DNA from: a virus
Lineage: Duplodnaviria; Caudoviricetes
Strand: one strand, 5' to 3'
DNA length: 60,021 nt
IMG/VR virus record: IMGVR_UViG_3300033829_000001
Coordinates: 1-60,021 of that record
Numbering within the stretch: the stretch's first letter is position 1; each line of letters begins with the position of its first letter. Both the position numbers and the translations under genes were made by a program. Positions 8,579-57,176 of the stretch are shown here, in pieces. The notes beneath the pieces are model-generated. The model had not been told where the DNA came from, made no database searches, and saw only the letters and a list, made by a program, of their open reading frames with translations.

Positions 8579-8581
8579 AGC

Positions 8582-8860: not shown

Positions 8861-8861
8861 A

Positions 8862-10691: not shown

Positions 10692-10951
10692 TGGATAGTC
10701 CTCAAAGGCATACCACTAAGAGTAGTGATATTGATGCCCGTCAGGGTAGTTATATCATGCGAGCCGCCACTGGACGAACTGGAAGAGCTGCTGCCGAACG
10801 GCAGGGCGGTCGGGTTCATGAGTTTACCAACGCCGGCAATAGGACCGGCGACCGACGCCGTCAGAACCGGCGGGGCTTGTCCCGCAACTACGAACTTGCC
10901 CAACCCGATAAGCACTGTCACCGGGACAGTCAGCCGCAATAAGTTACGCAT
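10688..10951 (-). CDS. Small exported protein; the C-terminal ITTLTG-x2-ITTLSG repeat resembles fibre-adaptor tails
   Basis: Hydrophobic N-terminus, Ser linker, ATGA-coupled to the fibre gene. Confidence 0.65.
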   Translation of the reverse strand: MRNLLRLTVPVTVLIGLGKFVVAGQAPPVLTASVAGPIAGVGKLMNPTALPFGSSSSSSSSGGSHDITTLTGINITTLSGMPLRTIQ

Positions 10952-10955
10952 GGTG

Positions 10956-11315
10956 CTAACTATTGGAAATCACAGCGAGTTTATCGCCCGAGTTGACCGT
11001 GAAGTACTCCGGTACACCCGCATAGAACAGCGCACTGGTAGTCGTCGCAGTCGGATTCGTAGTGCCTATCTCAATCGACGCCGTAGCATCGCATACCACC
11101 CGTATAATATATGTGGCTGAATTGAACGCATTTGACTGAGTGCTGGTACCGGTTATAGCCACCGTCTGTTTAGCCACGGCGGGGACGGCCAGCGCGGTCT
11201 GGTATGTAACGTTCTTGTTGTACTGGTACTCTGTCACCCAGCAACTGGACGCGTGCGCTCCCGCCGAGCCCGCCAAGGCCGCAGCGGCGGCTAGAATTCG
11301 CATATAATTTTTCAT
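10956..11315 (-). CDS. Secreted beta-rich protein
   Basis: Signal peptide ending AHA; 2 Cys. Confidence 0.75.
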   Translation of the reverse strand: MKNYMRILAAAAALAGSAGAHASSCWVTEYQYNKNVTYQTALAVPAVAKQTVAITGTSTQSNAFNSATYIIRVVCDATASIEIGTTNPTATTTSALFYAGVPEYFTVNSGDKLAVISNS

Positions 11316-11318
11316 GGG

Positions 11319-11822
11319 TTAGTACCCGCTGCAGCTGAATTGGACAACGTCGCTCGTAGTCGCGATCGTGATTTTCAGCGTCGCAGCCGTGGTGCTCACC
11401 GGGGCTACGGTCTCACCGACCACGCCTGAAGTAATATCCACCACGAAGCACGCCCAGCCATGCGGGGCCGCAGGCAGTGTCAGGACGGCAGTGCTGGCAC
11501 CCGCGGTGCCCGTGCACAGGAAGCTGCCCGTGCGCGCGCCGCCAGTGAGGGTGCTGGTGGTAGCGCAAGCGCCGGTACCAGAGGCCACCACGAACGTCGC
11601 ACCAGTGTCCAACGCGCTGGCTGAGATCACGCCCGCGGCACTTACCGCCAGTCCGCTACCCAGGGGGCAGTCGAAACCGTAGGCAACGCCGCTCTGCGGG
11701 TTACACAGGACGCTGGTTGCATTCATCGGACCTACTTGCTGAGGACCAACCTGCCCGTCAGCCAGTACGGCACCAGAGAATAGAGTCGCGGCTACAAGAC
11801 AAGATTTCAAAAAATTTTTCAT
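11319..11822 (-). CDS. Secreted beta-rich protein, paralog of 48676-49092 and 47593-48651
   Basis: Signal peptide ending VLA; shared GG..G.F...GT / G(W/F).C...D(I/L)T / D....(F/Y).C..(Y/F) pattern. Confidence 0.8.
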   Translation of the reverse strand: MKNFLKSCLVAATLFSGAVLADGQVGPQQVGPMNATSVLCNPQSGVAYGFDCPLGSGLAVSAAGVISASALDTGATFVVASGTGACATTSTLTGGARTGSFLCTGTAGASTAVLTLPAAPHGWACFVVDITSGVVGETVAPVSTTAATLKITIATTSDVVQFSCSGY

Positions 11823-28400: not shown

Positions 28401-28807
28401 GTGAAAAAACGTTTTACTTGGCAGGACCCATGAGCGGCCTCCCTCAATTCAACTTTCCGCTGTTCCGCGAAGTCGCGCGAGATCTACGTATGCGAGGCTT
28501 TAAGGTTATCTCTCCAGCAGAGTTGGACGAGGCAGAATCCGTTGCGGCGGCCATGGCTTCTAAGAACGGCGATCCGATCGCAGCTCATCGCAGTTGGGGC
28601 CATTACCTTTCACGGGACATTAAGATTGTTGCAGATCAAGTTCAGGGTATTATATTCCTGCCCGGTTGGGAGAAGTCCCGGGGGGCGCGCCTAGAAGCTA
28701 TGTGTGCGGCTTTATGCAACCACGAGTTCTTGGAATATCGCGACGGAGATTTGACCCCGATCGATAAGCACGACGTGCTTGCTATCATCGCGGAGCAAAT
28801 CAAATGA
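28397..28807 (+). CDS. DUF4406 / nucleoside 2-deoxyribosyltransferase-like protein
   Basis: YLAGPMSG..FNFP.F, SPAE and LPGWEKSRGARLE. Confidence 0.85.
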   Translation: MSEKTFYLAGPMSGLPQFNFPLFREVARDLRMRGFKVISPAELDEAESVAAAMASKNGDPIAAHRSWGHYLSRDIKIVADQVQGIIFLPGWEKSRGARLEAMCAALCNHEFLEYRDGDLTPIDKHDVLAIIAEQIK

Positions 28808-29349
28808 CAATCGGCGATATTAATAGCCACGAGCGTGGCACGGGCGCGCGTTTCAACGCGGGCAAAGTGGAGTACCATCAATTCCCCTTGGAATCGCTTG
28901 AGGGCGTCTTACGTGTGCTGATGTATGGCGCCAAGAAGTATGCACCTGGAAATTACCTAAAAGGACAGCCGTGGACCGTGCCGTTCAATTGTATGATGCG
29001 CCACATTGCGGCTTGGCAGCGCGGCGAAGAACTGGATCCTGAATCAGGTCTGCCGCACTTGGATCATGCCATGTGCAATCTGATGTTCCTATCTATATAC
29101 CGAGACGTCTACCCGGAGGGTGACGACCGCTGGCCGCAAATGCGCCGCGGGGGAGTACCAAAAAATGACAGCGACACCGGAAGTGTTAGTGAAGCAAGCT
29201 ATCGACGCAATGCTGAAGCAGCACAAAGCATACAAGCACAAGCCGATCGGGGCGGGTCTGGGCGAGCCCGCCCTCGACTACCACGTGTGCCATCAAGGAA
29301 TATATGCGGGCATCGAAGCAAAAAGGCCGGGCGGAAAACCGACCGCTAG
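28804..29349 (+). CDS. dATP/dGTP diphosphohydrolase-like protein (DUF5664)
   Basis: GAKKY...N, RH..AW..GEELDPESGLPHLDHA.CNL.FL. Confidence 0.85.
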   Translation: MTIGDINSHERGTGARFNAGKVEYHQFPLESLEGVLRVLMYGAKKYAPGNYLKGQPWTVPFNCMMRHIAAWQRGEELDPESGLPHLDHAMCNLMFLSIYRDVYPEGDDRWPQMRRGGVPKNDSDTGSVSEASYRRNAEAAQSIQAQADRGGSGRARPRLPRVPSRNICGHRSKKAGRKTDR

Positions 29350-33719: not shown

Positions 33720-36133
33720 GTTTTTTCGAAAGAGTGCTTCCTACCGAAGGTAATTATTGTTTGATAAGCGGGGTCACTCGACCAGACGGAAAGCTCAGTG
33801 AAGTCCGACATTGGAATGGGTTCAAATCTACTGCCGATTTAGATAGAAAAGTACGACAACTTTCCCAGCAACCTTTGAACATCTTTTACGCCGTTGGATC
33901 ATACAACAGTGCTAACCGACAAGACCCAAGAGCAAAGCGATGTTTGTGGTTAGACTTAGACAGCAAAGATTTTGGAAGTATAGAAGAGTCGCTTAGGCAG
34001 CTTAGCGTTTTTATAAGATCTGTTGGGCTACCTGCGCCTAGTATGTATGTAGGAAGCGGGCATGGATTACATGTTTATTGGTGCCTAGACCGTGACGTGA
34101 CGTTAATCGAATGGCAGCCAGTGGCGGACGCGCTTAAAGCAAAATGTATCGAACTGAACTTTCCAGCTGATAAATCAGCCACTGCTGATCCCGCTAGAAT
34201 CCTTCGAGTCCCTGGAACTTTGAATAGGAAATATCCCCAACCAGCGCCGGTACGCTTACTAGCAGATAATGGATCATCGATTCAGCTCAATCAGCTTGCG
34301 AGCCAATTAGCAGTCATAACCGCCGGTGCTTCTTCAAAGCTTGCAGCCTTAGTAAAAAATGACGATCTAGTCACCAAGAAGGAATACCGTGAATACACTG
34401 CTGAGCAAGTCATTGCAATGCTCGAATGCATTGCCATCCCTGAGAACAACGGGCGTGAGGATTGGATCACTGTCCTATGCGCAGTGCAGGATTGGTCTCA
34501 TAAGTCCCTCGCCGCCTTCGAAATATTCCACGACTGGAGTGCGTCTCAACCGAAGTACATTAGCCGCGAAGATTGCTGGCGCACATGGTCGAGCTTTGAA
34601 CCGGGCGGGGGAATCAGCATCGGAACTTTGGTTAAATTGGCTAAGGACGCTGGATGGACCGAAAACAGCTCAGTGACGGCTGTACCGGACGCCATCAGCT
34701 TTTCTGAACAAATTGCCGCGGGAGTATCCAACAACGTCCCTATACCTGCGCCAACCGCACAGGTTATGCAACAAATCATAACATCGCCCCTTATGATCGC
34801 AGCGGCCCACGCAGTACGCGCAACGAATAGAGTTCGCTTCGATCCGAACGACGCAGTACAGTGGCTGAGCAACGAGATGGTAATGATCACAGACCAAGAC
34901 GGGCTATATTATTCAATGACCAACCGGCTACCTATGTCACGTACAGTGATTGACGATCTGCTTACGCGCTACATGCCGTTCAATGCGAGCGGCGTACCGA
35001 TCAACGCTAGCGCGCTACTGCGCCGCTATGGCACCGTCAACTCGGTAAACACGATTGGCTTCTATCCCGGAGCCGGCCCTATATATACCGAAGAAGGACG
35101 TACATACGTCAATCATTATATGAACCCGCCTGACATGCTGCCCGGTACGGCGAACGAAATTGCTTTGATCGAAAGCTTCTGGGACTACTGCTTTCCTCGC
35201 GAGGAGGATAAGGAATTCGGCGAGTACCTGAAACAATTCTACGGCCATGTCGTCCAGCATCCATCAGTAAAGATCGCTAGCGCGCCGCTCATGGTTTCCA
35301 AAGAGTTCGGGACCGGTAAGACCACGATGATGTTCGATATACCGCGTGCTATTGTAGGCACCCATAGTACAAAGCTCGTGTCTAACAAAGTCCTACGTTC
35401 AGCGTTCAGCGATTATTTGGCTGGCGCGCACTTCCTTCACTTCGATGAAGTGCATATAAACGGCAAATGGGACTCGGATGATACAGCCAACTCGATGAAG
35501 AACCTGATCACAGGCAAGACTGTCGAGATCCATCCCAAGGGTATGAAGCCTTATAATATTCCCAACCGCGTGTTCATCACTGCAACGAGTAATTATGAAG
35601 ATGCGATCACATTACCTACCGATGATGAAAGACGCTGGGGAGTTTATTACTTGCGACCTACCCTTATGTTGTCTACAAGTGCGAAAGAGTCATTCTTTGG
35701 CGTACTCCATAAATTTATCAACTCGCCGCGGGGTGCTTCGGTTCTACGGTGGTACTTTAGCAAAGTCGATCTCGCCGGTTTCGACCCACAGCGCGCTCCG
35801 CCAACTACGTCCGCTAAACGAGATATGATTGGCAAGTCACAATCATTGGACGTTCAAGTGATTCGAGACGCCCTGCAAGAAAGGTGTGGTCCGTTTGCGA
35901 AGGACGTGGGTACTCTTGATGCAGTTAAGATGTTCCTACATGCCGAAACTGGACGCGAATATCCTTCGGTTGCAACGCGCTATCTAATCCAGAAAGCAGT
36001 TCCGGGAGCAATAGCATTCGGTCAACAGCGCACTGCCGGTAGCACGCGGGTATCTATGTGGGCGTGGCGCAATCTTGATAAATGGTCGCAAGCTACTCCA
36101 CATGAAATAGCTAATGAAATCAAAAATCAGTAG
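33716..36133 (+). CDS. Primase-helicase (RepB-like AEP primase, PriCT-2, SF3/DUF5906-like ATPase)
   Basis: WLDLD, SGHGLHVYW, ILRVPGTLN; REDWITV..WS..KY..W.SF; GTGKTT, FDEV; GGAGG RBS. Confidence 0.9.
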   Translation: MSFFERVLPTEGNYCLISGVTRPDGKLSEVRHWNGFKSTADLDRKVRQLSQQPLNIFYAVGSYNSANRQDPRAKRCLWLDLDSKDFGSIEESLRQLSVFIRSVGLPAPSMYVGSGHGLHVYWCLDRDVTLIEWQPVADALKAKCIELNFPADKSATADPARILRVPGTLNRKYPQPAPVRLLADNGSSIQLNQLASQLAVITAGASSKLAALVKNDDLVTKKEYREYTAEQVIAMLECIAIPENNGREDWITVLCAVQDWSHKSLAAFEIFHDWSASQPKYISREDCWRTWSSFEPGGGISIGTLVKLAKDAGWTENSSVTAVPDAISFSEQIAAGVSNNVPIPAPTAQVMQQIITSPLMIAAAHAVRATNRVRFDPNDAVQWLSNEMVMITDQDGLYYSMTNRLPMSRTVIDDLLTRYMPFNASGVPINASALLRRYGTVNSVNTIGFYPGAGPIYTEEGRTYVNHYMNPPDMLPGTANEIALIESFWDYCFPREEDKEFGEYLKQFYGHVVQHPSVKIASAPLMVSKEFGTGKTTMMFDIPRAIVGTHSTKLVSNKVLRSAFSDYLAGAHFLHFDEVHINGKWDSDDTANSMKNLITGKTVEIHPKGMKPYNIPNRVFITATSNYEDAITLPTDDERRWGVYYLRPTLMLSTSAKESFFGVLHKFINSPRGASVLRWYFSKVDLAGFDPQRAPPTTSAKRDMIGKSQSLDVQVIRDALQERCGPFAKDVGTLDAVKMFLHAETGREYPSVATRYLIQKAVPGAIAFGQQRTAGSTRVSMWAWRNLDKWSQATPHEIANEIKNQ

Positions 36134-39100
36134 CCCGCGCAGTATCTGCGTCATTGGTTGCGCCCTGTTCGTCGAGCTGTTTGTCCCGAGTCATAGCTTG
36201 TATCTCCGAGGCTATTCCTGCCGAGCGTGCGGGGAAGCGTTGTATATAGGAATTCAACCGCTCCTCGGCCCGTACTCGCGAAGCCGCGTCGGGTGCTGAT
36301 ACATACGCTCTGATGATAGCTGTGCGGGCTGCTTTCTGGGCGGCTGCGTTTTCTACACGCACTTGGATCTTCTCCTGAGCCTCCGCTACTGAAGCCGGTT
36401 TAAAGCCTAGCGCCTGCGTTATCGCGTCTCCTGTTGACGGTGCAGTTTGCTGAGCGCCCAATGAATCAACTTTTCCCGCCGTCATCAAGCCAAACGCTTT
36501 CACTGCATCCTGATACATCTTCACAGGAATCACCGAGCTGATAGCTTGGAAGGGTTCGCCCTTTTGCATGTGACCTACGAAGCTCGATACATTGTTCGCT
36601 AGCATTTGTGGCATAGGGCCAGATGCTTCGAATATGGCGTTCTTCCACATGTCCTTGTCGGCTGAGAGTAAGTCGGGCGGATTGTGGAAGAAGAGATCCG
36701 CTAGACCCATCCGTGAGGAAACGTCGGCGCCAATCAAATGTGGCAAGCCATAAGCGGCGGTGTTCCCTGCCGTCTTGCCAAGGTGGTCTACCAACCACAT
36801 GTGAACGGCGTTCTTGAAATCCCATACCTCACCTTCTTGGTCGGCTATCTTATGGTAGGCATACATCGCCAGTTGCAGCGGCGCTAGCGCGGCGCCTCCG
36901 TACACACCCGCGAATAGCGCATTCCCCATCACTACTCCTGCAAGGGTCTTCGCGGCAACTGCTTTGTTCTCTCCTCTGAAAGATGCCACCAAGTTGCTAT
37001 ACACTAAGTGCGTCATTTCCTGTGCGTAAGTAGTGAACATCGTCAATGAGTTCATGCCCGGTATACGATTAACTTTCTTGAAGGCTAATGGCTTATTTTG
37101 CTGCGAGTAATCCGCATGAACCTCTTGCACAAAATCCGCCGTCTTGCGAACATCGCCGTTCGTTAGTTGTAACCCGGCAAGAGCTGTGGAAACACGATTG
37201 AAAGCATCAGCCATAGCAGGTACCAGTCTAGCCCACTCAAACACCCGGTCGGTTGTTGCGTTGTCACCCCGGGCAATCGATCCCAATTCATTCGCATACC
37301 CATGATCAATAACCCCTCTATCTATAAGTTGGCGCAGCGGACTGTTGTCTCCAGACGCCCATTTGCCCAAGGTCGGATGCTTTGCTACATACGCAATGAT
37401 CGCGTTGTGTATGTCCGAGCTGGTACCCCCCTTAGCAAAGACGTTTCGTACAGTTGCGCGCAACGCAGGCCCGATCACGCGCATGCCGCTACCGAACGCA
37501 ACAAGGGACTTGCCGTAACCGTACCGAGCGCCTGCTACTGGTATGCCCGTTGTAAAATTCTGGGTCATCCAGATTGCTGCATGCGACGGGGAAGCGAGAT
37601 ATCCCATGAATCCTAGCTTGGCTAGCATCGAGTTAAGCGGAGCCTTATGGCCGTAGTTCTGAACTTCATCGATCGCATGCTTGTTAAGTGCCTCGACTAC
37701 CTGCCCACGTCGGTACATGGCCCTCTGCGATACGTTATCCCGCGAGTCGCGCGCCATAGCCCGCACCCTCGCCATCGCGCGGGCCTGTTCGAAAACCGTA
37801 CGCATTTGCGCCGCATGCCACATAGTAGATGACGCGTGCTGCGCGAAATTCTGTCGCATGTCCTGCGCCTTCACTCCACCCACGCTCTTACGAGCCAACC
37901 GCGATCCCGCATATGCTGAGCGGGCTGCTGTCATTTGGAGGAAAGCAGATCGCAGACTAGCAACGAGAGCCTCAGTTCCTGCATCAGCTCCATTCTTTTG
38001 AATTTTTCGTTCTGCTTCCGAAACAAGCTCCTTGAGACCGTAGCTGAGAGGAGCCGATTCTCTTCCCATCGTTTTCTGAGTAACAAGTCCGGGCTCGAAG
38101 CCGGCGGCCACGAGACGAGCTTGCTCTGCCTCGGCATCCGCTCGTGTCTCATGCATAGATACGTACTTGACCTTATAGTCAACAACGTGCTTTCCTCCGC
38201 GTTCGCTAACCTCGGCCGTCGAATCAGGCGAAAGCTCTCGCGCGCGCTGGGCCCACTCGTTAGCCTTACCGACATCGTTGAACTCGCGGGTACCCTCTGG
38301 TCTCGCTGCGACAACATACTCACCCTGCCTTCCTAAGTGGAAATAGTCTCCCTCGATCTCTGACATGCCAGCGAAGTCCGATACCGCAGCTTTGAACTTG
38401 GCATTATCCTCGCCTACATCAATCGATTTCCCATCTCCGATGATTGAATCATATACTTCCGGATGTTTAGCACCGTAGAGCAATCCTTTCTGCGCTGGGT
38501 CCAAGTCCAGTCCCAGTGCGTCGATGGCTGTATCAATGCCTGCCTTACGCATTTCACGCATTTGCGCGCGATTGGCATCAGCTGCTCTATTATAAACATC
38601 GCGCGCTTCCGGACTCAACGCGTTATATCTAGCTTTGTACTGGTTATATCGAGTCTCGAATCCATCCCGTCCCTTGGCAATTGCAGGTTGGTCGTCCATA
38701 CCTTTGCGCATGTACATACGATACATCGTGGCATCCACCATCAACTGTGACATCTTGCGTTCATCGTCGCTCTTGAGCTTCGTCCATGCCTCAGCCACGG
38801 GTTTAGAGATCTGTCCCATGCGATTGATCAGCACGTTCTTCTTAATATCAGCTTCTTGTAATTCGCGGAGCGGGTTGCCTTCCTTGTCACCGCCGAAGTC
38901 CGTCATATGGTCACGGAAGATCTGTCCCACGGTTTTAAGGTTCGTAATTACTCGTCGCAGCGCATCGACCGATTTGCCCCCTACGACATGGCTGAATGCG
39001 CGCGCAGCTGCCGCTGGCTCGTCATCATCGGGAAAGATCTGCTTGAAACGAAACTCATCCGTGTCGCTCATTTCAGGCGCCGGATCGCGTAGTGCGCGTA

Positions 39101-42100
39101 GTCCCGGAGCGGCACGAGCCGCTTCTAGCGGTGTGACCGTCGTTGCTTCGCCGAGGGCTGCGCGGGCTACCTCGGGCAACGCGTTATGCACACCGATCGC
39201 ATTGGTACGATCGAAGATCGGATTGTTACGCCGCTGTGACTCCATCGCGTCTTGAACCGCTCCTACAATATGCTGTAATAGGTTCGGGTCTTTCATACCA
39301 AATATGCTACCGATCGCTTTGAAGACTTTGGTTAGCAGACTTTCTTTCACACTGCCTAGATTCTCACCGGGAAGAGCGAACGCTTCTGAGTCAGCGATCT
39401 CCTGTGCGAATTCCGGGTGCGTCAAAACTTCGGCCGCCATCTCGTGTGAATTGGTAATACCATACAGATGCCGCATAAAACCTTCAGGCTTCGGTACGGT
39501 GCCAGTGCGATCCTTGAAATACGCCTGATGCTCTTCGAGCACGTCAGCGCCATACTTGGACTCCAAACGCTTAATCAAAGCGTCATGCAACTGATCCATG
39601 CGCTTGGCAGCAGCACCGCCGGGGTTGGACTCCAGTTCATGCGTGGTGCCCGCGTGGATCATCTCGTGCACCAGCGCCTGTACGGTATAGGTAAAACCTG
39701 TCGGTCCTTTCAGCGTGTTCTCCAGATTGACCTGGATAGTGCGATTGCGGTTGGTGAACAAGCCGCCAGCCTTTTCACCAAAGCCGCGGCCGGTAAACAA
39801 GTTCTTAACCTCACTCATAGAATAGATCGGCGTATCCGGCAAGCGTTGTCGTATGCTGGTAAGAATATCCTGCAAATGCGGCGTCTGAGCATGTTCTATC
39901 ATCTTATTTAGTAACGCATGCGCACTGATGGGCGCGCCCGAATCAGTATGCATTCTCATGTAATTCAGATAGCCCGCACTCTCCATCGATTTGGCCATGC
40001 GGTCCCACTCATAGTTCAGCCGTGTATCCAATGCGCGTTGTTTGATGGCTTCTAGTTTGCCACCAAGAGTCGGACGGTACCCTTTGCTGAAGCCGGTCTC
40101 AGGCTGCTCGAACGTATGCTCTTCTTCCTCAAGAGTATCGGATATGCGCCCTGTGGGCTTCTCGGGCTTATTGCCTGCGCGCTCATCATCGAGAAATTTC
40201 AGTATCTGATCGATCTCACGTTTAGGACGGTTCAGATCATGTAGAGTTTGTTCAAACTGGTCGCGCAGTCGGCTCGCTTTGGCGGGATCTTCTTCGTTCA
40301 CGAACCGCGTCTTGAGTCCAAGCATGCGCGTTTGCTGTTGCTCAGTTAGATCCTTGGGCTTGATTTGATCTGCGTACTTCTCGTTGACTGGGACTTCAAT
40401 CAAGGGTCCGGCTTTCGTCTTCTCGGTCTTCGCAGCGATTTCTTGATATCTCGTTCGCTTGGCCGCGATCTTTTCCTTCAGCTCAGCGGCCTTCGCCCCC
40501 ACAGTGATTTCATCGCCGCGTCGGGCCACTCCGAGTATTCCGCGTGCAGCCTTGTGCATCTCAGCCACGAGAGCAGTGACCTTAGCGTGTCCAGTGCCCC
40601 TTCCTTTTGCAGTGTCCTCAGCCGACTTGTACGTGAGCCGTTCAGCGGCTGCCGCAGCCTTGGTTGCACGAGCGACGATGGCATCGTCCACAGTTCCATG
40701 TGCTGCCTGCGCGGCAGTTTTAAGGACCGACGCAAACGCTGAGGCGTTGTCTTGCCGCTCTCCAAGACTGGCCGCACGTGTCTGTCCATCGGGGATCTTC
40801 TCCTGGGCTTCGTGAGCCGCAAGCGCTTCTGCTAGTGCACCAGTTGCACCGGCTGCCTTTGGGGCTTTGCCCCGTTCGCCGCGTTTGCCCTCGGCTTTGC
40901 GCTGTGCCTTATCGGCCTGTAGCGCCTTCTCGGCTTCAGTTGTATCCTTGCCCAAGCCGCGGGAGAACTCAATGCCCTTGGCAGTTAGCCGTTCGCGGGC
41001 TCGCGCCAGCTGTGTGGCGACCTTAGCTTTATCGGTGCCCTGAACTTTGAACTCATCACCACTGATATGATAAGCATTACCACCGGTTTCTTCATGCAGT
41101 ATCTGAGCAGCGGTTCGGATCGCCTCATCGCCTGCCTCATGGCCCTTTGTATCGTTCAGATACTTAAAGTTGTCCAGATCGACATGCGCCTGCACCGGTA
41201 ACTTGTCGGACTCTTCGTAAGCACGACGGTTTTGAATGCCGGATACCTCGTTGGTCAGCAGCGTCTTACGCATCTGCTCGGGCGACATCTCGCTGATTTT
41301 TTGACGCTGAGCAGTATTGACGCGGCGCTCTTGCGTAGCCTCCGTAGATTCAGGTTCAGGTTTAGCGGGCTCGGGTGGATACTCTGTGCCAGTGCGCACT
41401 CTATCTTCGGGCACATCAATAGTATGGTCTGCAGCCTCGCCACTAGCGTCGATCGGACGCACGCGCACTTTGCCAGTGGGCGCACCTTCTTCAATATGCA
41501 CTGGCAGCTCTTTGCCAGAATCGCTCTTGAAAATGCCCATCGTAGGCTCGGGAGCAGCGGGCGGCGCGGGGGCCGGCTCGCTCTTCGCTAGCGGCTCTGG
41601 TGCTGGTTCCGCTCCTGCTCCCGGCTGCTGTTCTTTCGCTATCTCAGATTCGCGCCGCGCGAGCGCAGCCTCTGGCGTGGTTACCACTGGGGTCTTGCCC
41701 TGGTCTATAGCTTTCTGCGCTGCCTGTGGTACTTCGGAGGGCTTGACCGTAGTTTCAGTTGCAACTGCGCCATCTGGCGTATGTCCCTGTACGACTGCCG
41801 TCTGGTCAGCAGCCTTGCCTGGGCCGGCGCCAGTGACAGATCCAATCACGGCCTGCGGATCTTCGCCAGCGTCTAAGCGCTTCTGTACGGCTTCAGCACC
41901 AGCTTTGGTCTTGAGTACCAAAGTGCCGTTGTCCATGGCGACAGTGCGGCCTTGCTTAGTGGCATTGGATAGTGAGCTAGCAACAGACACGTGGTCAGCT
42001 GTTAGGCCCCCCATTGAGTTGTTGAGATTATCCGTTGATAAGAACACGCCGACGCGCGGTGTCTTAGGATCATTCATATCTCTGAACTGCGCACGAATAT

Positions 42101-43322
42101 CCTTGGCGGGCTCGGCAGTTGGCTGATCGGGGATGCTCGTAGCAGCGGCCGGCGCGGGCTGTACTTTGCTAAGATCAGGAGCCGGCGCTGCGCCGCCAGT
42201 GGGGGGTGCTGCATTCTTAACTGTTTCGGGGGAAGGCCCCGGGGGCGGCGGAGGCGGTTCCGTACCGGGCGCGCCAGGAGGGGGAACATCGAAGCCTTTC
42301 TTTCTAAGAGTCTCGGCGTGTGGGCCGCCTATCGCAGCCATGACAGCGCCTAGGATTTCACCACTAGCGAAACTGGACGGATCCGTCGGATCAATTTTAT
42401 CAGCAGCTGCCTTGTAGCCATCAGACTTTAATACATACTTGGTAGCAGCAGCCTGTGCAGGAGTGATCACAGCGTTACCGCCGAGACCCCATGCCAGCCG
42501 CGTTATCAGCTTCGGGCTGTTTAGTGGCAGAGCCATCCCAGCAGCGTTCGCTACCAGGGCGACACCAGCTAGCTTGTATACAGTCTTAAGATCTTGATTG
42601 TTCAAGATCGCATCCGAACCGCTGTTCATCGTGCTCGATGCGAGCATACCTTCTGGACCCAGCGCCAGCGGGGCTATACCCTCCGCCGTTGCTCCTACCG
42701 CCTGCGCTGTGCTGTTCACACCGTTTGGATTCGCGGGATTCTCCGCAGCTTGGGTACGAGCCGATAGAGCGCGCACTGATGGCTCCCATGCAGCATCGAT
42801 CGCTTTGTACAACGAATCGGCGAAGTCCATCGCCGTGGTGTTACCAGACAAGTATGCGGGCTGGGCTACTACGCCGGCAGCCATACGCTCGACGCCCTCT
42901 ACCCCTTTGTTAACACCGCTCGCAGCTTTCTGCGCGTAGTATTTAGTATTGTTCCAAAGATCGCCCCAGAAGCGTGTTGCGCCATCGTCGTTTTTAACAG
43001 TCGGAATTACAGCGGGCTTTGGGTTCGGTGCGGGCGGCGTGGCTACAGCACCAGCTGGCATCTGGTCAGGAGTGTTGCCAGCTTGCGCTGCGGCGATGGC
43101 GTCATCGGATGGCTCGGGCGGTTCCTCGTAGGGTTGAGTGCCTACACCCGGGGCCATACCCACCGGGATGCCGCTGGCTCGGGGACCAGATTTGATCGGG
43201 ACTTTAGGACTCAGATCAGGATCCGCGCCCATGGCTTTGAGCGCGGCGCTAGCCTGCGCGCGACCTTGCTGAACTAATTGCTGGGCTCCAGTGTTGGTTG
43301 GATCTATGGGAGAGCCGGCCAT
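36120..43322 (-). CDS. Giant internal virion/ejection (polyvalent) protein with GGDEF and HExxH domains
   Basis: 2400 aa, last gene of the virion arm; NRRAY, DLDNFKYLNDTKGHEAGD, SGDEF; HEMIH...HEMAAE. Confidence 0.85.
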   Translation of the reverse strand: MAGSPIDPTNTGAQQLVQQGRAQASAALKAMGADPDLSPKVPIKSGPRASGIPVGMAPGVGTQPYEEPPEPSDDAIAAAQAGNTPDQMPAGAVATPPAPNPKPAVIPTVKNDDGATRFWGDLWNNTKYYAQKAASGVNKGVEGVERMAAGVVAQPAYLSGNTTAMDFADSLYKAIDAAWEPSVRALSARTQAAENPANPNGVNSTAQAVGATAEGIAPLALGPEGMLASSTMNSGSDAILNNQDLKTVYKLAGVALVANAAGMALPLNSPKLITRLAWGLGGNAVITPAQAAATKYVLKSDGYKAAADKIDPTDPSSFASGEILGAVMAAIGGPHAETLRKKGFDVPPPGAPGTEPPPPPPGPSPETVKNAAPPTGGAAPAPDLSKVQPAPAAATSIPDQPTAEPAKDIRAQFRDMNDPKTPRVGVFLSTDNLNNSMGGLTADHVSVASSLSNATKQGRTVAMDNGTLVLKTKAGAEAVQKRLDAGEDPQAVIGSVTGAGPGKAADQTAVVQGHTPDGAVATETTVKPSEVPQAAQKAIDQGKTPVVTTPEAALARRESEIAKEQQPGAGAEPAPEPLAKSEPAPAPPAAPEPTMGIFKSDSGKELPVHIEEGAPTGKVRVRPIDASGEAADHTIDVPEDRVRTGTEYPPEPAKPEPESTEATQERRVNTAQRQKISEMSPEQMRKTLLTNEVSGIQNRRAYEESDKLPVQAHVDLDNFKYLNDTKGHEAGDEAIRTAAQILHEETGGNAYHISGDEFKVQGTDKAKVATQLARARERLTAKGIEFSRGLGKDTTEAEKALQADKAQRKAEGKRGERGKAPKAAGATGALAEALAAHEAQEKIPDGQTRAASLGERQDNASAFASVLKTAAQAAHGTVDDAIVARATKAAAAAERLTYKSAEDTAKGRGTGHAKVTALVAEMHKAARGILGVARRGDEITVGAKAAELKEKIAAKRTRYQEIAAKTEKTKAGPLIEVPVNEKYADQIKPKDLTEQQQTRMLGLKTRFVNEEDPAKASRLRDQFEQTLHDLNRPKREIDQILKFLDDERAGNKPEKPTGRISDTLEEEEHTFEQPETGFSKGYRPTLGGKLEAIKQRALDTRLNYEWDRMAKSMESAGYLNYMRMHTDSGAPISAHALLNKMIEHAQTPHLQDILTSIRQRLPDTPIYSMSEVKNLFTGRGFGEKAGGLFTNRNRTIQVNLENTLKGPTGFTYTVQALVHEMIHAGTTHELESNPGGAAAKRMDQLHDALIKRLESKYGADVLEEHQAYFKDRTGTVPKPEGFMRHLYGITNSHEMAAEVLTHPEFAQEIADSEAFALPGENLGSVKESLLTKVFKAIGSIFGMKDPNLLQHIVGAVQDAMESQRRNNPIFDRTNAIGVHNALPEVARAALGEATTVTPLEAARAAPGLRALRDPAPEMSDTDEFRFKQIFPDDDEPAAAARAFSHVVGGKSVDALRRVITNLKTVGQIFRDHMTDFGGDKEGNPLRELQEADIKKNVLINRMGQISKPVAEAWTKLKSDDERKMSQLMVDATMYRMYMRKGMDDQPAIAKGRDGFETRYNQYKARYNALSPEARDVYNRAADANRAQMREMRKAGIDTAIDALGLDLDPAQKGLLYGAKHPEVYDSIIGDGKSIDVGEDNAKFKAAVSDFAGMSEIEGDYFHLGRQGEYVVAARPEGTREFNDVGKANEWAQRARELSPDSTAEVSERGGKHVVDYKVKYVSMHETRADAEAEQARLVAAGFEPGLVTQKTMGRESAPLSYGLKELVSEAERKIQKNGADAGTEALVASLRSAFLQMTAARSAYAGSRLARKSVGGVKAQDMRQNFAQHASSTMWHAAQMRTVFEQARAMARVRAMARDSRDNVSQRAMYRRGQVVEALNKHAIDEVQNYGHKAPLNSMLAKLGFMGYLASPSHAAIWMTQNFTTGIPVAGARYGYGKSLVAFGSGMRVIGPALRATVRNVFAKGGTSSDIHNAIIAYVAKHPTLGKWASGDNSPLRQLIDRGVIDHGYANELGSIARGDNATTDRVFEWARLVPAMADAFNRVSTALAGLQLTNGDVRKTADFVQEVHADYSQQNKPLAFKKVNRIPGMNSLTMFTTYAQEMTHLVYSNLVASFRGENKAVAAKTLAGVVMGNALFAGVYGGAALAPLQLAMYAYHKIADQEGEVWDFKNAVHMWLVDHLGKTAGNTAAYGLPHLIGADVSSRMGLADLFFHNPPDLLSADKDMWKNAIFEASGPMPQMLANNVSSFVGHMQKGEPFQAISSVIPVKMYQDAVKAFGLMTAGKVDSLGAQQTAPSTGDAITQALGFKPASVAEAQEKIQVRVENAAAQKAARTAIIRAYVSAPDAASRVRAEERLNSYIQRFPARSAGIASEIQAMTRDKQLDEQGATNDADTARATDF

Positions 43323-45925: not shown

Positions 45926-47136
45926 GGGTGAGCACTCACGTGCGGGGGATGAAACACGGGAATTGCACGTCGTTTATTCATCTGATTGCGGATACTATCT
46001 ACTTGTTTATGAAAGAATTCTTGCCCCTTAAAATCTACGACGTCTTTTGGCATCACCCACTCGCCAGGGGTGAGTAACGCTGGCTTGGTATCAGTCGAGC
46101 CCGGAATAGGCGAGCTGGGCAACGCACCGCGCGCAGTAACATTACCACCTTGACTCATAACTTCTCCGCCTGCGCAGTAGGCTGAAGAGATAGGCGGCCC
46201 GTTGCCGCTAGGCGCGGGTATGCCAGCGCGCTGGTGCGTCGCCCGCATACGCTTGCCCATCATAGGTATGCCCGGTAGAGGGCCGGGGACTCCCGCCCCG
46301 CCTGGAACAGGGCCGCCAGACTCCATCATAGCCATGCCGGCAATACCAGCTACTTGGCCAATGATCTGGCCGACACCGGCCTGCTGTTGCTGCTGGTCAG
46401 TGTAGACCTGCTGCTGCTCGCCAAACTGCGTATTGGCCGCCTGCACTGCGCTGTTGTTCGCATTGACGTCCGTGTTGAGATAAGAGTTGGCCGCAGTGAG
46501 GTTGTTCACGTTCGAAGCGTTGGTGCTGTTCACAGTATTCTGACCGGCCTGCGCTGTCTGCGCACCAGCTGCTTCGCCAGCCGTGCCCATCTGACCGACT
46601 TGCACGCCCAGTTGGTTCGCTTGGTTCTCCATACCAAACGCAGTCTGCTGTGTTTGGATCGCGCTCTGTGTACCGGCGTTGGCCGCATTGGCTGCGCCAG
46701 ATACAGCAGCCTGCTGCTGCATAGCAGCACCACCGAGCGACGCAGGATCGACACCCTCGGACGCGAGAGCGGCGCGCGAGTTAGCCAGCGCTGCCTGATC
46801 GGCCGCGTTGGCATTGCCTACCGCCTGTCCCTGCAGCAGCGCGACATTCTGCGAAGAGCCGTATTGCTGCGCGGCCTGCGCTTCGGTGCTCTGCAGCGGA
46901 TTGAAAACAGAACCATACTGCTGCAAATTCTGATTCGCGGTATTCGCAATAGCGCCCGCGGCGTTATTGCTTGCGTTTGTCACACCGGACAGGTTCGCCT
47001 GTGACTGCTGGTTAAGAGCAGTTGCAGTATTCATGGTCTGCGCGGCGTTGCTGGTCGCAGTCCCCGCCGTGTTGTTCGCGTTGGTTACGTTGCCGCTTAG
47101 ATTAGCTGCTTGGGGTGTACTAGCGCCGCCTGACAT
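45922..47136 (-). CDS. Internal virion (ejection) protein
   Basis: Ala/Gln/Asn-rich; C-terminal DTKPALLTPGEWVMP motif. Confidence 0.75.
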   Translation of the reverse strand: MSGGASTPQAANLSGNVTNANNTAGTATSNAAQTMNTATALNQQSQANLSGVTNASNNAAGAIANTANQNLQQYGSVFNPLQSTEAQAAQQYGSSQNVALLQGQAVGNANAADQAALANSRAALASEGVDPASLGGAAMQQQAAVSGAANAANAGTQSAIQTQQTAFGMENQANQLGVQVGQMGTAGEAAGAQTAQAGQNTVNSTNASNVNNLTAANSYLNTDVNANNSAVQAANTQFGEQQQVYTDQQQQQAGVGQIIGQVAGIAGMAMMESGGPVPGGAGVPGPLPGIPMMGKRMRATHQRAGIPAPSGNGPPISSAYCAGGEVMSQGGNVTARGALPSSPIPGSTDTKPALLTPGEWVMPKDVVDFKGQEFFHKQVDSIRNQMNKRRAIPVFHPPHVSAHP

Positions 47137-47552
47137 GCTCGATGCTCCGCTGGTATCCAGCGACAATCTTTTCGATCCAACGCGAAGAAGTGCAACGCAC
47201 CAGACGGGTGAGCGTCTTTGAGCACAGCGAATTCTTCAAATCCTAGGCGCTTAGCGAAGTTCAACGACTTAGCGTTGCCCGCTTGTATTATGCCAATAAG
47301 CTTCTGGTATTGCCACTGTATGAAAGGGACTTCAAACCCAGTCCTCAAAAGAACCCGATTGAACCCGGTCGGGGAGTCTGTGACGGCGTGTAATTGACAG
47401 GACAGGCCCTGAAAACTGTCGTATCCAAACGCCGCGATTATGACTCCGTCTACTTCGCGGGCGATGCCACGAAACTCTTTCTGTATGGGCATGCCTGAGC
47501 GGATATGCATCCACTGCTGGATTCTATCGTCAGTGTTAATCAGCCGGTCCAT
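47097..47552 (-). CDS. GNAT-like acetyltransferase preceding the ejection genes
   Basis: N..SL.F.KRLGF; position typical of podoviruses. Confidence 0.75.
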   Translation of the reverse strand: MDRLINTDDRIQQWMHIRSGMPIQKEFRGIAREVDGVIIAAFGYDSFQGLSCQLHAVTDSPTGFNRVLLRTGFEVPFIQWQYQKLIGIIQAGNAKSLNFAKRLGFEEFAVLKDAHPSGALHFFALDRKDCRWIPAEHRACQAALVHPKQLI

Positions 47553-47586
47553 GAAAGGAAGGGGGTCCTTATAGACAAGAACCCCC
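47553..47586 (-). terminator. Probable intrinsic terminator after the secreted paralog pair
   Basis: GGGGGTTCTT-GTCTAT-AAGGACCCCC followed by TTCCTTTC. Confidence 0.55.
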
Positions 47587-47592
47587 GGATCC

Positions 47593-48651
47593 CTAGAACG
47601 CAGTGCATTTATAGGTGATCAGATCGCCCGAAGTAGGCGTTCCGACAATGGACACCAGAGTCGTAGTATACGCTGATTCTTTGAGAGTGTTGGCGGATGT
47701 CGTTAAATCCTTGAATGTGCACACAAACCCGTTCAACACTGCCACGGGGTAGGTGAACAGAAGCGCGCCAACCGCCGTAGATCCAGTCGCTGTAACCGTG
47801 TTGCCGATCAGCGTTACAGCGCCGTTAAGTGCAAACACGTGACCAGTTACCGAGGCGCCGTTTCCGAGGCTATCTGAGATAGCTGCGATCACGGTGCCGT
47901 TGACGACCGAAGAGGCGTTTATAGTCGCGCTCGAACCGACAAGCCAGTAGACGTTCTGTGCCTGAGCGCCGTTGGTCAGCGATACAGTGCTCGACGTATT
48001 AGCGGTAAACGTGCTGCCGATCTGGAAGATGAAGACCGCATTTGGATTGCCACCGCCGTTCAGAGTGACAGTCCCGCCGACCGAGATATCCGCGCTTGAG
48101 CCGATTTTATACAGGCCCGGGCTAAGCGTTGTCCCAGCTAGCTCGTATGAAGATGCCGATAGAACTGTGGCACCGGGGAGAGCGTTCCCGGTATTGAACG
48201 CCGTTGTCGCGTCCGTTACTGCCTGCGCCGCCGCGCTGTTGGTGATGTTTGAGGTGCCTGTGACAGTCGGCGAGCCGGTAACTGATGTGCCGGGATAGAG
48301 GGCCAGATTGCCTGTTATAGTCGTAGTGCCAGTATTCGTGATCGTCGAAGTCGCGATCACACCATAAGTGACTGCGGTACCTAGGAGGATGCCCGATGAC
48401 GGAGCAGTCCCGCTGACTACAAAAGAGCCGGCGTTAGCGCCTCCAACCTGAGCGGAGATAGTCTGACCAGCGGCGGTAATGACCGGCTTATTCAGACTCA
48501 GGTCATTAAATTGACCCTGTAGCCCGGTCTGGCCTGTGAGCGGGTTGAAGTCATAATACGGGACAAAGGTCGCCGCCATGGCAGCACTAGTCAAAGCAGT
48601 GCCGAGAACCAGCGATGCAATGTTTGTCTTGAAACTCTTGAAAAACTTCAT
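47593..48651 (-). CDS. Secreted protein with an inserted DUF3494 ice-binding-like domain
   Basis: Signal peptide ending AMA; STITNTG.T.ITGN.ALYPG, L.PGLY, TLNGGGNPNAVFIFQI, V.LTNGAQAQNVYWLVG.SAT, GHVFA..GAVTL. Confidence 0.9.
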   Translation of the reverse strand: MKFFKSFKTNIASLVLGTALTSAAMAATFVPYYDFNPLTGQTGLQGQFNDLSLNKPVITAAGQTISAQVGGANAGSFVVSGTAPSSGILLGTAVTYGVIATSTITNTGTTTITGNLALYPGTSVTGSPTVTGTSNITNSAAAQAVTDATTAFNTGNALPGATVLSASSYELAGTTLSPGLYKIGSSADISVGGTVTLNGGGNPNAVFIFQIGSTFTANTSSTVSLTNGAQAQNVYWLVGSSATINASSVVNGTVIAAISDSLGNGASVTGHVFALNGAVTLIGNTVTATGSTAVGALLFTYPVAVLNGFVCTFKDLTTSANTLKESAYTTTLVSIVGTPTSGDLITYKCTAF

Positions 48652-48954
48652 ATTCAGTACCTTATAGGTTAGAGATCAAAACGCAACGCATTCGTATACC
48701 AGAAGATCGCCAGACACAATCGTTCCAGCAAACGTGACAGTAGTAGTCGTGTATGCCACTTCCTTCGAACTGTCGGCTGTAGTCGTAATATCAACTAAAG
48801 AACATGCAAAACCGGTAAGGACCGGCTGCGGATAAGTGAACGTAAAGGCACCAGTGGTCGTGCCTGTAGCAACGAACGCACCAGCAACGGCGCCTCCAAC
48901 CTGAGCGGAGATAGTCTGACCAGCGGCGGTAATGACCGGCTTATTCAGACTCAG
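48437..48954. repeat. 65-bp exact direct repeat (48437-48501 and 48890-48954) shared by the tandem paralogs
   Basis: Encodes LSLNKPVITAAGQTISAQVGGA in both genes. Confidence 0.9.
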
Positions 48955-49092
48955 ATCGACAAACTGCCCTGGTAGGCCATTGATGCCCGTGAGCGGGTTG
49001 AAGCCGATGTAGGGAATATACACAGCAGCAAGCGCGGCGCCAGTTACGAACAGGGCTGCGAGGGCTGCGCCAAACTTGCGAGAAGTCTTCAT
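48676..49092 (-). CDS. Secreted beta-rich protein; paralog of 47593-48651 lacking the insert
   Basis: Signal peptide ending ALA; collinear N- and C-terminal similarity; 2 Cys. Confidence 0.85.
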   Translation of the reverse strand: MKTSRKFGAALAALFVTGAALAAVYIPYIGFNPLTGINGLPGQFVDLSLNKPVITAAGQTISAQVGGAVAGAFVATGTTTGAFTFTYPQPVLTGFACSLVDITTTADSSKEVAYTTTTVTFAGTIVSGDLLVYECVAF

Positions 49093-49136: not shown

Positions 49137-49164
49137 ATTATACCAATGTCAGGCCACCAGTCAA
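49137..49164 (-). promoter_or_regulatory. Sigma70-like promoter TTGACT-N16-TATAAT with extended -10 (TGn)
   Basis: Near-perfect consensus directly upstream of 49092. Confidence 0.7.
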
Positions 49165-49343
49165 CCTCGCCCCCGTGGACGCATAAAGTTAGGCCGGAGC
49201 TGCGGAGCCGCAAAGTGTCGCCCGCGATCTGCATTCACAAATTCCCGGGCTACTGTGGGAGATGGCCCTTTGCCGCTGCGAGGCTTGCCCCCGTGAGCAA
49301 TCAATTCCATAAACCTGTGCTGCTTTCCTGATTTACTTGGCAT
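49161..49343 (-). CDS. Small basic hypothetical protein
   Basis: MPSKSGKQHRFM...VAREFVNAD. Confidence 0.7.
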   Translation of the reverse strand: MPSKSGKQHRFMELIAHGGKPRSGKGPSPTVAREFVNADRGRHFAAPQLRPNFMRPRGRG

Positions 49344-56242: not shown

Positions 56243-56632
56243 TTATATTCCCTGTAGCTGAGCCACGAAGCTCTGCATCAATTGCTGAGAGCGGGAAGTC
56301 TCAGTAAATTCATCGTCCGCTAGTTCTACGCGGGCTGCGATATACGCCACCACGGGGTAGTAGAACAGTTTATCGTCGAGTGGGAACGACGTCGGAGGCG
56401 TCTGCCCCAGATCGCTTTCCGCGTACGTATTGATTGTCGTAGTCGAAATGATCCCAGAAGAAAAGTTGCCTATATAAGCATCAGGTCGAATCGCATACAC
56501 TACTCGCAGAGCCGTGTTCAGATACTCCATTAGCGTGCTGATCTGATTGCGGTACGGTTGCACCGCGTCATTTACCATAAACTGCGCTTCCAGAATCGCG
56601 TCATCAACTGTTTTCGTGACTTGAGTTACCAT
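56243..56632 (-). CDS. Head-tail adaptor-like protein
   Basis: ND...R...L.EYLN.AL....IRPDA; first structural gene after the capsid/HNH. Confidence 0.65.
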   Translation of the reverse strand: MVTQVTKTVDDAILEAQFMVNDAVQPYRNQISTLMEYLNTALRVVYAIRPDAYIGNFSSGIISTTTINTYAESDLGQTPPTSFPLDDKLFYYPVVAYIAARVELADDEFTETSRSQQLMQSFVAQLQGI

Positions 56633-57176
56633 GGGGCGCATTCTCTCCGCGGGCTACAAGGGCTGCAGCCAGTTTCCATAATACCTCATCGCCCCAGAAT
56701 CCGCGAGCAGAGTTGTAAGCCCAGATAACGACTTGGATGTTGCCCTTGATATAGCCTTTTGTTGGATCAATCCGGTCGATGGACGGACCATAAGCTTTAC
56801 GGCCATCTCCCATAGTAAGGTCAAACGGCAACCCGGTCTTAGCGCACACGCCCAGTTCCAGCTGCGGCTGAACATCCGAGATATCCAAATCGAATTCCAA
56901 CGAACGCCCATGAGAACTACAGTTAGCCTTAGCATGTTGAACCATCACTAAAGCTCTACCCCTAGGTGTCTCTTCGTTTTTTCGGCGGTATTCAATACGA
57001 GCGGCGGACCTCCCACGGGCTCGTTCCTTTTCTTTAACTTCAGGACGTTGCCTCCAAGCGATGATATAAGCTTTATTGCATTGTTTGCATTCATTGGCAT
57101 GGCCGTCTTTGCGGGCTGCGTGCTTGTGAAACTCTGAAAACGGTTTCTCGATTTTACATGCTGAGCACTTTTTCAC
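56604..57176 (-). CDS. HNH / endonuclease VII-like homing endonuclease
   Basis: CSAC..K..SEF...CKQC N-terminus; PSIDRID..KGY..GN....YN. Confidence 0.85.
   Translation of the reverse strand: MKKCSACKIEKPFSEFHKHAARKDGHANECKQCNKAYIIAWRQRPEVKEKERARGRSAARIEYRRKNEETPRGRALVMVQHAKANCSSHGRSLEFDLDISDVQPQLELGVCAKTGLPFDLTMGDGRKAYGPSIDRIDPTKGYIKGNIQVVIWAYNSARGFWGDEVLWKLAAALVARGENAPHGNSSHENS

Follow-up and report, generated by a model that had tools for sequence, protein, structure and literature searches.

The closest described relatives of the element reported here are secreted microbial ice-binding proteins of the DUF3494 family (Pfam PF11999), such as EfcIBP (6EIO) and AnpIBP (7BWX), in which a long helix lies beside a beta-solenoid. 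According to the available parts of two reports, the first and last coils of solved DUF3494 proteins, and with them the termini, are adjacent (PMC7277481; PMC11645318). Multidomain members are known as well, in particular SfIBP_1 of Shewanella frigidimarina (6BG8), in which DUF3494 is combined with beta-sandwich (Big) modules, and the available portion of one report has it that the beta-sandwich modules appended to bacterial DUF3494 domains are thought to aid adhesion (PMC11645318). On the viral side, three Arctic viral contigs carry PF11999 genes that were, in the sections of that study on which we draw, read as cryoprotective accessory genes (Rahlff et al. 2024, PMC11515562). Here we analyse a DUF3494 domain encoded by a tailed phage. 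Namely, the IMG/VR record IMGVR_UViG_3300033829_000001, the whole of which (60,021 nucleotides, nt) was analysed and is called the window below, encodes at 47593-48651 a protein of 352 amino acids (aa) in which a complete DUF3494 domain is inserted into a small C-terminal domain, hereafter the knob, that also forms the body of a 138-aa paralog encoded next to it.

Like EfcIBP, AnpIBP and other secreted microbial DUF3494 ice binders, the 352-aa protein has a full PF11999 domain (44% and 38% identity to the two, root-mean-square deviation (rmsd) 1.1-1.4 Å), a long helix beside the beta-solenoid and a predicted export signal; unlike them, it holds its DUF3494 domain in the loop of another domain and not as a free-standing or terminal unit, and the phage carrier is predicted to be trimeric. 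With SfIBP_1 it shares the pairing of DUF3494 and a beta-sandwich, and 6bg8 matches our model of the solenoid at E 6e-12, but SfIBP_1 is a tandem fusion in a cellular protein, whereas here the solenoid interrupts a single sandwich of a virus-specific family. The Arctic genes, compared by description only and as far as the accessible part of that study describes them, resemble it in being PF11999 genes borne by viral contigs from a cold-region sample (PMC11515562). The knob itself is reminiscent of trimeric tips such as those of the R-pyocin fibre (6CXB/6CL6), AP22 gp53 (4MTM), reovirus sigma-C (2JJL) and the C-terminus of the Dettilon tailspike (6F7K), all of which are small C-terminal beta-sandwiches, as the knob is in its predicted trimer; it differs from them in that the structural similarity is non-specific (VIA Z 5.2-5.8), there is no Pfam or PDB sequence match, and, in contrast to classical tail fibres, knob carriers mostly start with signal peptides. 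Finally, phages carry morons and exported exclusion proteins, examples of which are lambda bor and lom, T5 Llp and phi80 Cor. The gene pair studied here resembles them in its small, putatively exported products, its promoter-gene-terminator layout in a late operon and its variable position, but bears no relation to them in sequence or fold.

Results

Architecture of the gene pair

The 352-aa and 138-aa proteins are encoded side by side on the late strand, with the lysis genes on one side of the pair and the genes for internal virion proteins on the other (Table 1). The first-pass annotation of this DNA had described the longer protein as aligning with its neighbour at both ends, and this is borne out by BLASTP, which aligns aa 1-78 of the 352-aa protein with aa 1-74 of the 138-aa protein (64% identity, E 8e-28) and aa 301-352 with aa 87-138 (56% identity, E 7e-15); at the DNA level, a 114-nt stretch is 86.8% identical between the two genes. 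In a four-sequence alignment comprising these two proteins and two further small relatives (A1), the extra segment amounts to 216 residues (aa 79-294) standing in place of a 5-residue hairpin loop. In other words, the insertion of about 200 residues, earlier placed at approximately nt 47791-48387, is real, while its extent is slightly wider (nt 47770-48417). The GC content of the insert is 57.6%, as compared with 51.3% in the flanks.

Table 1. Features of the window discussed in the text
Feature	Position	Strand	Evidence
352-aa gene: predicted signal peptide, knob N-terminal half, DUF3494 insert, knob C-terminal half	47593..48651	-	open reading frame (ORF) list, BLASTP, Pfam, alignment
Predicted signal peptide of the 352-aa protein, aa 1-26: basic n-region, hydrophobic core, AMA then A	48574..48651	-	inspection of translation
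Knob chassis, N-terminal half, aa 27-78	48418..48573	-	64% identity to 138-aa neighbour; alignment A1
Inserted segment, aa 79-294, holding PF11999 at nt 47791-48360	47770..48417	-	Pfam, alignment, AlphaFold2 (AF2), Foldseek
Knob chassis, C-terminal half, aa 295-352, conserved Cys C311 and C349	47596..47769	-	BLASTP, alignment A1
138-aa paralog: predicted signal peptide aa 1-22 (ends ALA) and knob domain without insert	48676..49092	-	ORF list, AF2 model
Intergenic spacer with duplicated ribosome-binding region (TAAGGTACTGAA), also before the 138-aa gene	48652..48675	-	sequence comparison
Sigma-70-type promoter-like site (TTGACT, 16-nt spacer, TG, TATAAT)	49137..49164	-	11/12 positions, extended -10; 45 nt upstream of the 138-aa gene
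Terminator-like hairpin: 11-bp stem with 6 G-C pairs, then T-rich tail	47561..47586	-	begins 7 nt past the stop codon of the 352-aa gene
Third knob carrier, 167 aa: predicted signal peptide and knob	11319..11822	-	hmmsearch, A2 profile, six-frame ORFs, E 3.9e-13
609-aa putatively exported fibre-like protein: predicted signal peptide, tail-fibre body, Peptidase_S74 chaperone at aa 499-559, C-terminal hydrophobic helix	8862..10691	-	phrog_1980 tail fiber; PF13884 E 1.4e-12

Both junctions of the insert are crossed by identical contig pieces from independent runs (record 17 of run X5, covering 46500-48466; record 27 of run X8, covering 47974-48501; and records 2-3 of run X15, covering 47390-47894), and therefore the fusion is real and not an artefact of assembly. 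No joint skipping the insert was seen in the contigs of four runs, contigs being prone to drop rare variants, and a near-identical 352-aa protein is known from another contig (P0001). By inspection, the N-terminus of the 352-aa protein has the basic n-region, hydrophobic core and small residues at -3 and -1 of a Sec signal peptide cleaved by signal peptidase I, and N-termini of the same type were recognized in five proteins of the phage (352, 138, 167, 119 and 609 aa). Given this predicted signal peptide, together with the terminase, portal, capsid and tail genes in the window, the original description of the product as a secreted phage protein is supported.

The DUF3494 insert

The insert is a member of the DUF3494 family, as its motifs had suggested from the start. 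Namely, the PF11999 profile is covered in full (positions 1-208 of 208) by aa 98-287 (nt 47791-48360), with an E-value of 5.1e-47 and a score of 160.7 bits against a cut-off of 28.7. In composition, and we mean composition only, it is rich in threonine and serine (30.6% together), poor in charged residues (K+R 0.5%, D+E 1.9%) and contains 12 T-x-T triplets. When the 352-aa protein was folded by AF2 with 50 DUF3494 relatives (A8), chassis relatives being excluded, aa 89-290 reached a predicted local distance difference test score (pLDDT) of 94-98, with a helix at 139-156 beside the solenoid strands, as in members of the IBP-1 fold. The model superimposes closely on solved ice binders: a Foldseek search of the PDB returned 31 matches at E<=1e-3, all of them DUF3494 ice-binding proteins, the top one being 6eio (E 1.1e-16, 44% identity, rmsd 1.3 Å over 203 columns), with 7bwx and 7bwy at 37-38% identity. 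Against these three structures, the TM-score (template modelling score) normalized by target is 0.87-0.96 and the rmsd 1.1-1.4 Å, and a phmmer search concurs (6eio, E 2.3e-35). Since the termini of DUF3494 domains are adjacent, such a domain can be inserted into a loop. Joint alignments of chassis and DUF3494 relatives were also tried and rejected: in A4, A5 and A7 the short chassis proteins were misaligned, with an apparent identity of 19-24% as compared with 64% in A1, and A6 was only partly aligned.

The knob and its predicted trimer

An AF2 model of the 138-aa protein, built with 47 family members (A2), shows a beta-sandwich at aa 44-138 with a pLDDT of 82.9. A knob profile run against the sequences in the PDB gave E-values of 0.39 and 0.96 at best. 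Structural similarities in the VIA search reach Z 6.8 at most; fibre tips (5.2-5.8 over 74-94 residues), tailspike C-termini and the C-terminal sandwiches of glycosidases score Z 5-6, a range that the tool itself calls non-specific.

The knob is predicted to form a homotrimer. In particular, three copies of aa 24-138 were predicted to assemble with an ipSAE (interaction prediction score from aligned errors) of 0.93 in three of three runs, the best of three controls reaching 0.00, with contacts agreeing to at least 94% and a pLDDT of at least 90; the calibration behind this score, in which 20 of 30 solved pairs and 1 of 23 single chains were called, was made with two copies, not three. The insertion point is in loop 78-83, which joins strands 70-77 and 83-86; the residues around it (73-86) lie outside the predicted interface, and therefore three solenoids could project from the trimer.

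Distribution of the knob

The knob is a conserved domain of about 85 aa, restricted to viruses and unannotated. The 138-aa protein has no Pfam or PHROGs family, the 352-aa protein has no PHROGs family, and neither matches PF24146 at E<=0.01, a feature score of 0.88 for PF24146 on the window's knob in the ESM Atlas being a lead only. While a word search found just two relatives of the 138-aa protein at near-equal length and, with its coarse word index, no longer relative other than the 352-aa protein itself, phmmer against 1.84 billion representatives returned 331 knob proteins at E<=1e-3. All 150 carriers listed out of these 331 (71-1520 aa long) have the domain ending at most 3 residues from the C-terminus, and 146 of them exactly at it. 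By a crude hydropathy rule, 107 of the 150 begin in a signal-peptide-like manner (75 of 111 long and 32 of 39 short carriers), and several of those that do not appear truncated. Among 42 long carriers, five have weak or clear Pfam matches to pectate-lyase/beta-helix or GDSL families, and five have PHROGs matches to tail, tail-spike or other proteins. Neighbours of the 138-aa protein in the ESM Atlas fall into clusters of 124-148 aa that are 88-100% viral.

A scan of IMG/VR with a small alignment (A3) gave 40 knob loci, at 38 of which the match reaches the stop codon. ORFs were listed for 12 of these loci, and 52 ORFs from 10 of them were scanned; in 4 of the 10, knob carriers directly adjoin tail or baseplate genes, and those of L025, L027 and L038 stand beside genes for tail-collar, tail-fibre, baseplate-wedge or sheath proteins. 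L024 belongs to a relative of the phage studied here, with common scaffold, capsid, phrog_437, phrog_511 and phrog_8003 genes, and has a 1223-aa knob carrier in the slot of this phage's tail fibre, with no similarity between the two proteins. PHROGs assigned no family to 9 of 10 long carriers from the scanned loci. Many knob carriers are, as far as their predicted features go, signal-peptide-bearing fibre-like proteins in phage tail modules. No knob relative was found in GenBank phage records by tblastn at E<=1, and a scan of genome contigs with P0170 gave 29 loci, all of which matched its N-terminal fibre motif only (query residues 23-149) and none the knob, and is uninformative on the knob in cellular genomes. 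As a side observation, L032-L055 and L060 (e.g. L032:4899-5258), on about two dozen short viral contigs, encode proteins of 119-122 aa without a signal peptide that are distant kin of the knob (E approximately 1e-5).

DUF3494 in other viruses

The domain was initially taken to be unusual in a phage, which stands for cultured phages: the 352-aa protein has no tblastn match at E<=1e-5 in 50,697 GenBank phage records, and BFVD holds no phage protein matching at E<=1e-3, only three proteins of a giant virus. It does not stand for uncultivated ones, as a close-relative scan of IMG/VR found 19 DUF3494 loci, sheath and Baseplate_J proteins included, and the Arctic contigs have been published, as the available part of that report describes (PMC11515562). 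All 18 proteins tested, namely 13 carriers from the 19 loci and 5 metagenomic relatives, pass the PF11999 cut-off, and no signal peptide was found in the carriers from the IMG/VR loci. Fourteen loci were scanned with PHROGs. Two of them, L009 and L020, encode the baseplate and sheath proteins detailed below; elsewhere the carriers follow genes for terminase, portal and capsid or stand next to tail-fibre genes, and those of L002 and L004 lie among sugar-modifying genes. L009:5196-13046 encodes a 2616-aa Baseplate_J/baseplate-wedge protein with two PF11999 stretches. The carriers at L020:7347-10121 and L010:11-2842 are proteins of about 930 aa with PF11999, that of L020 having a C-terminal tail-sheath match (phrog_279), which would make the ice-binding-type solenoid a decoration of the tail surface.

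The same insertion design is seen in a metagenomic protein of 340 aa (P0023), whose DUF3494 domain is 61% identical to the insert. There, PF24146 (K1-lyase_C), a small tailspike C-terminal domain, matches in two stretches with PF11999 (aa 98-282) between them, the better stretch, aa 48-92, corresponding to profile positions 2-45 of 70. P0023 differs from the 352-aa protein in having no signal peptide and in a chassis of a different Pfam family. The idea that a small domain serves as a display chassis is in this sense reinforced: the scaffold recurs, and in P0023 DUF3494 splits another one.

Organization of the cassette

Across both strands of the entire window, just one other site reaches 11/12 besides the promoter-like one that precedes the 138-aa gene; promoter-like sites in general are not enriched over shuffled sequence, so that this one is notable for its strength and placement alone. 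The same 12-nt ribosome-binding stretch precedes both genes. The hairpin beyond the 352-aa gene has an RNA folding energy of -22.1 kcal/mol (z -1.79), a value reached by 6 of 200 shuffled sequences. As for position, the knob genes of the window lie after the lysis genes (the pair) and upstream of the terminase (the 167-aa gene), and in related phages a signal-peptide knob gene is found elsewhere, namely between terminase and portal in L090 and upstream of the terminase in L091. With a promoter and a terminator of their own, as judged by consensus scans, and a variable place in relatives, the two genes look like an autonomous accessory cassette of the moron type. These features, along with the signal peptide, speak against the earlier suggestion of display on the virion and rather for an exported accessory product. 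Separately, one DNA contig of run X5 is without 12 bases at window position 49249, between a spanin-like gene and the cassette promoter, which is a strain variant.

Habitat

A 9.9-kb stretch around the gene was found in 20 public runs, of which 15 contain half or more of the sampled words. With 4 possible source runs left out, they come from 10 studies, 9 of them labelled peat metagenome and 1 permafrost metagenome. Over parts of the gene, the window is matched without a difference by contigs from the permafrost-labelled run and from two metatranscriptome libraries, and an RNA-library contig (48437-48919) bridges the 352-aa and 138-aa genes. In RNA run X15, contig depth is higher over 48188-48919 than beside it, a quantity that cannot rank genes and was not used; RNA runs with shares below 0.2 (X17-X22) were not used either. 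The cold or freeze-thaw habitat that had been read from the domain fits these peat and permafrost labels, but the domain alone implies nothing of the kind, as PF11999 occurs in many environments according to the accessible part of a survey (PMC12337378).

The phage and its other exported proteins

The phage is podovirus-like and from peat. The window, estimated by CheckV to be 100% complete, is that of a tailed phage according to PHROG and Pfam scans of its proteins, which recognized a portal, a large terminase, a scaffold-like protein, a P22/HK97-type major capsid protein, an adaptor, tail-fibre proteins, a GH108 endolysin and three large internal-virion-type proteins, and no integrase or repressor among the proteins scanned. 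The replication module is on the strand opposite to the late genes. Its closest GenBank phages are four Rhizobium phages of about 60.9 kb, with a capsid identity of just 48.6%.

Apart from the gene pair, a second cluster of putatively exported proteins lies upstream of the terminase (8279-11822, minus strand) and comprises the 167-aa knob protein, a 119-aa signal-peptide protein, an 87-aa ORF and the 609-aa fibre, as well as a 92-aa coiled-coil-like and a 99-aa membrane-like ORF. A 10/12 promoter-like site (11878-11850) is located just upstream of the 167-aa knob gene. Such a layout, in which an export signal is combined with an autoprocessing chaperone and a membrane anchor, would lead to a fibre trimer being freed outside the cytoplasm. 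The phage thus annotated appears to invest in several Sec-exported fibre-like products, which classical cytoplasmic virion assembly would not explain.

Several further genes deserve mention. A 414-aa TnpB-like protein (OrfB_IS605 and a Cas12f1-like TNB domain) is encoded within the replication module (16499-17743, plus strand). At 28804-29349 (plus strand) lies the gene for a 181-aa protein with a dATP/dGTP diphosphohydrolase N-terminal domain (PF18909, E 2.6e-27), which may act in nucleotide-pool editing or point to a modified base. In a giant virion-type protein of 2400 aa (36120-43322, minus strand), an LPD39 domain accompanies a partial match to GGDEF (aa 713-781, E 4e-8). Between the capsid gene and the structural genes that follow it there is an endonuclease VII/HNH-type gene (56604-57176, minus strand), which may be a homing-type insertion, and a 90-aa ORF at 6062-6334 (minus strand) starts with a lipoprotein-type signal, that is, a hydrophobic stretch ending in LVGC, and encodes a possible phage lipoprotein.

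Discussion

How could a phage make use of a DUF3494 domain held in the loop of an exported knob? The reading that we tentatively prefer, and whose chances we put somewhat short of even, is that the cassette provides an exported ice-binding protein. Accordingly worded as a proposal, the cassette would be transcribed within the late region from its own host-type promoter and ended by the terminator-like hairpin, and the 352-aa and 138-aa products would be exported by Sec, with cleavage of the signal peptide. The mature products, each a short linker followed by a beta-sandwich knob of about 95 residues, would form homotrimers, and in the 352-aa paralog, where a complete beta-solenoid interrupts the knob at an exposed hairpin loop, the trimer would display three solenoids outside the cytoplasm. 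The knob would anchor the protein on a glycan of the envelope or matrix, while the DUF3494 module would bind ice, and the infected cell, or the lysate with the progeny, would in this way be able to bind ice or to inhibit its recrystallisation in peat that freezes seasonally. The domain architecture, the family of the insert, the C-terminal place and viral distribution of the knob and the occurrence in peat and permafrost runs are secure. The predictions of export, trimer, promoter and terminator are consistent with one another, whereas anchoring on glycans, binding of ice and any gain for the phage are what we infer. Ice binding is favoured because of the close similarity to proven ice binders, the shared export signal and the habitat labels.

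A number of points weigh against this reading. The available part of one report describes the ice-binding face of DUF3494 proteins as having no conserved sequence motif (PMC7277481), and therefore activity cannot be read from the sequence. As described in the parts of a survey at our disposal, PF11999 is widespread across many non-icy environments and occurs also in substrate-binding proteins (PMC12337378); ice binding is weakened by this broad range and by the fact that virion proteins make use of such a module too. What is more, the closest relatives of the insert (P0017, P0015, P0016, P0019, P0023 and L002, at 56-62% identity) are all without a signal peptide, and these, together with the sheath and Baseplate_J carriers, suggest a general phage surface-adhesion module over a cryoprotectant. 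A Sec signal peptide would by itself bring the protein only to the periplasm of a diderm host. The knob, for its part, gave no Foldseek match at E<=1e-3 with the 138-aa model, and the wide VIA search, with a best Z of 6.8, matched it to no known family or solved fold. In the model of the 352-aa protein, where MAFFT had misaligned the chassis relatives across the insert, the knob halves have a pLDDT below 55 and are unmodelled, because of which the geometry of the insertion was taken from the model of the 138-aa protein and alignment A1. Only consensus matches speak for the promoter and terminator, the hairpin folding just modestly better than shuffles, the RNA-library contigs may derive from contaminating DNA, and the label 'peat metagenome' alone does not mean frozen.

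Would the exported solenoid rather bind a polysaccharide or another ordered surface, such as the envelope, capsule, extracellular polymeric substances or peat matrix, and not ice? The protein could then act in receptor masking or superinfection exclusion, in adhesion of the infected cell or in binding to the matrix, a role that the 138-aa paralog would share by means of its plain knob. We consider this fairly unlikely, though second only to ice binding. According to the part of the survey available, DUF3494 is substrate-binding or adhesive in many non-icy environments (PMC12337378). The domain is also found in phage sheath, Baseplate_J and fibre-like proteins, in which decoration domains usually bind glycans; the knob terminates putatively exported pectate-lyase-like or GDSL proteins, as in the 5 of 42 long carriers above, and weakly resembles glycoside hydrolase C-terminal sandwiches and fibre tips (Z 5-6.8); and two paralogs in the same phage have no DUF3494 domain at all. 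Exported accessory proteins beside fibre or lysis genes are classic phage exclusion genes, T5 Llp and Cor among them, which adds to the same side. What detracts from such a role is that all matched solved DUF3494 proteins are ice binders, at up to 44% identity and from a set biased towards ice research, that the phage occurs in peat and permafrost runs, and that we know of no glycan-binding DUF3494 member established by experiment.

A virion component, in which the knob would be a fibre tip or decoration carrying DUF3494 on the particle and the hydrophobic N-terminus an uncleaved assembly or anchoring element, is in our view improbable. It would suit the place of the gene on the late strand between lysis genes and internal virion proteins, the occurrence of the knob at the end of long tail-module proteins, with the L024 carrier in a tail-fibre slot, the DUF3494 domains of sheath and baseplate proteins elsewhere, and the predicted trimer, which is like that of fibre tips. 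It is at odds with the n-h-c layout and small -3/-1 residues of the five N-termini, with the cassette's own putative promoter and terminator, and with the changing position of the small knob gene among relatives; moreover, the protein has just a linker of about 20 residues and no shaft or adaptor domain, and the L024 carrier bears no similarity to this phage's tail fibre. On balance, export of the 352-aa protein is the more likely. Scarcely any credence can be given to an assembly chimera or a decaying, functionless gene: the record is metagenome-derived and the insert differs in GC content from its flanks, but all 352 codons are open, both chassis halves are conserved down to two invariant Cys, identical contigs of several independent runs cross both junctions with no alternative joint in four runs, and there are the near-identical P0001 and the same design in P0023.

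Returning to the exported ice-binding protein, a broader proposal can be attached to it, namely that peat and soil phages possess an undescribed class of Sec-exported, trimeric, knob-ended fibre-like proteins, one of which captured DUF3494 as an ice adhesin or cryoprotectant that would coat the envelope of the infected cell or the surroundings of the progeny and raise survival of freeze-thaw. In this full form we regard the proposal as doubtful. Should the ice-adhesin reading apply, 'adherence to ice' would be, by analogy, a structural counterpart to the adherence of phages to mucus.

Part of what was found matters independently of ice. The knob defines a large, virus-restricted family of C-terminal domains without a Pfam entry, most carriers of which bear predicted signal peptides yet sit in tail-fibre modules, for which classical phage assembly offers no explanation. 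DUF3494, in turn, is a module that phages have used repeatedly in sheath, baseplate and fibre-like proteins; among the publications listed by our literature searches we found none describing it as such, or describing the present architecture, although viral PF11999 genes may be given in the supplements of the papers cited. Insertion into a loop, observed twice and in different chassis, lends itself as a template for the display of binding domains on a small trimer. Finally, if the insert does bind ice, the 352-aa protein would be a phage-encoded, exported ice-binding protein of defined and testable architecture in a freezing habitat, and it would bear on the winter survival of viruses and infected cells in peat and permafrost soils.

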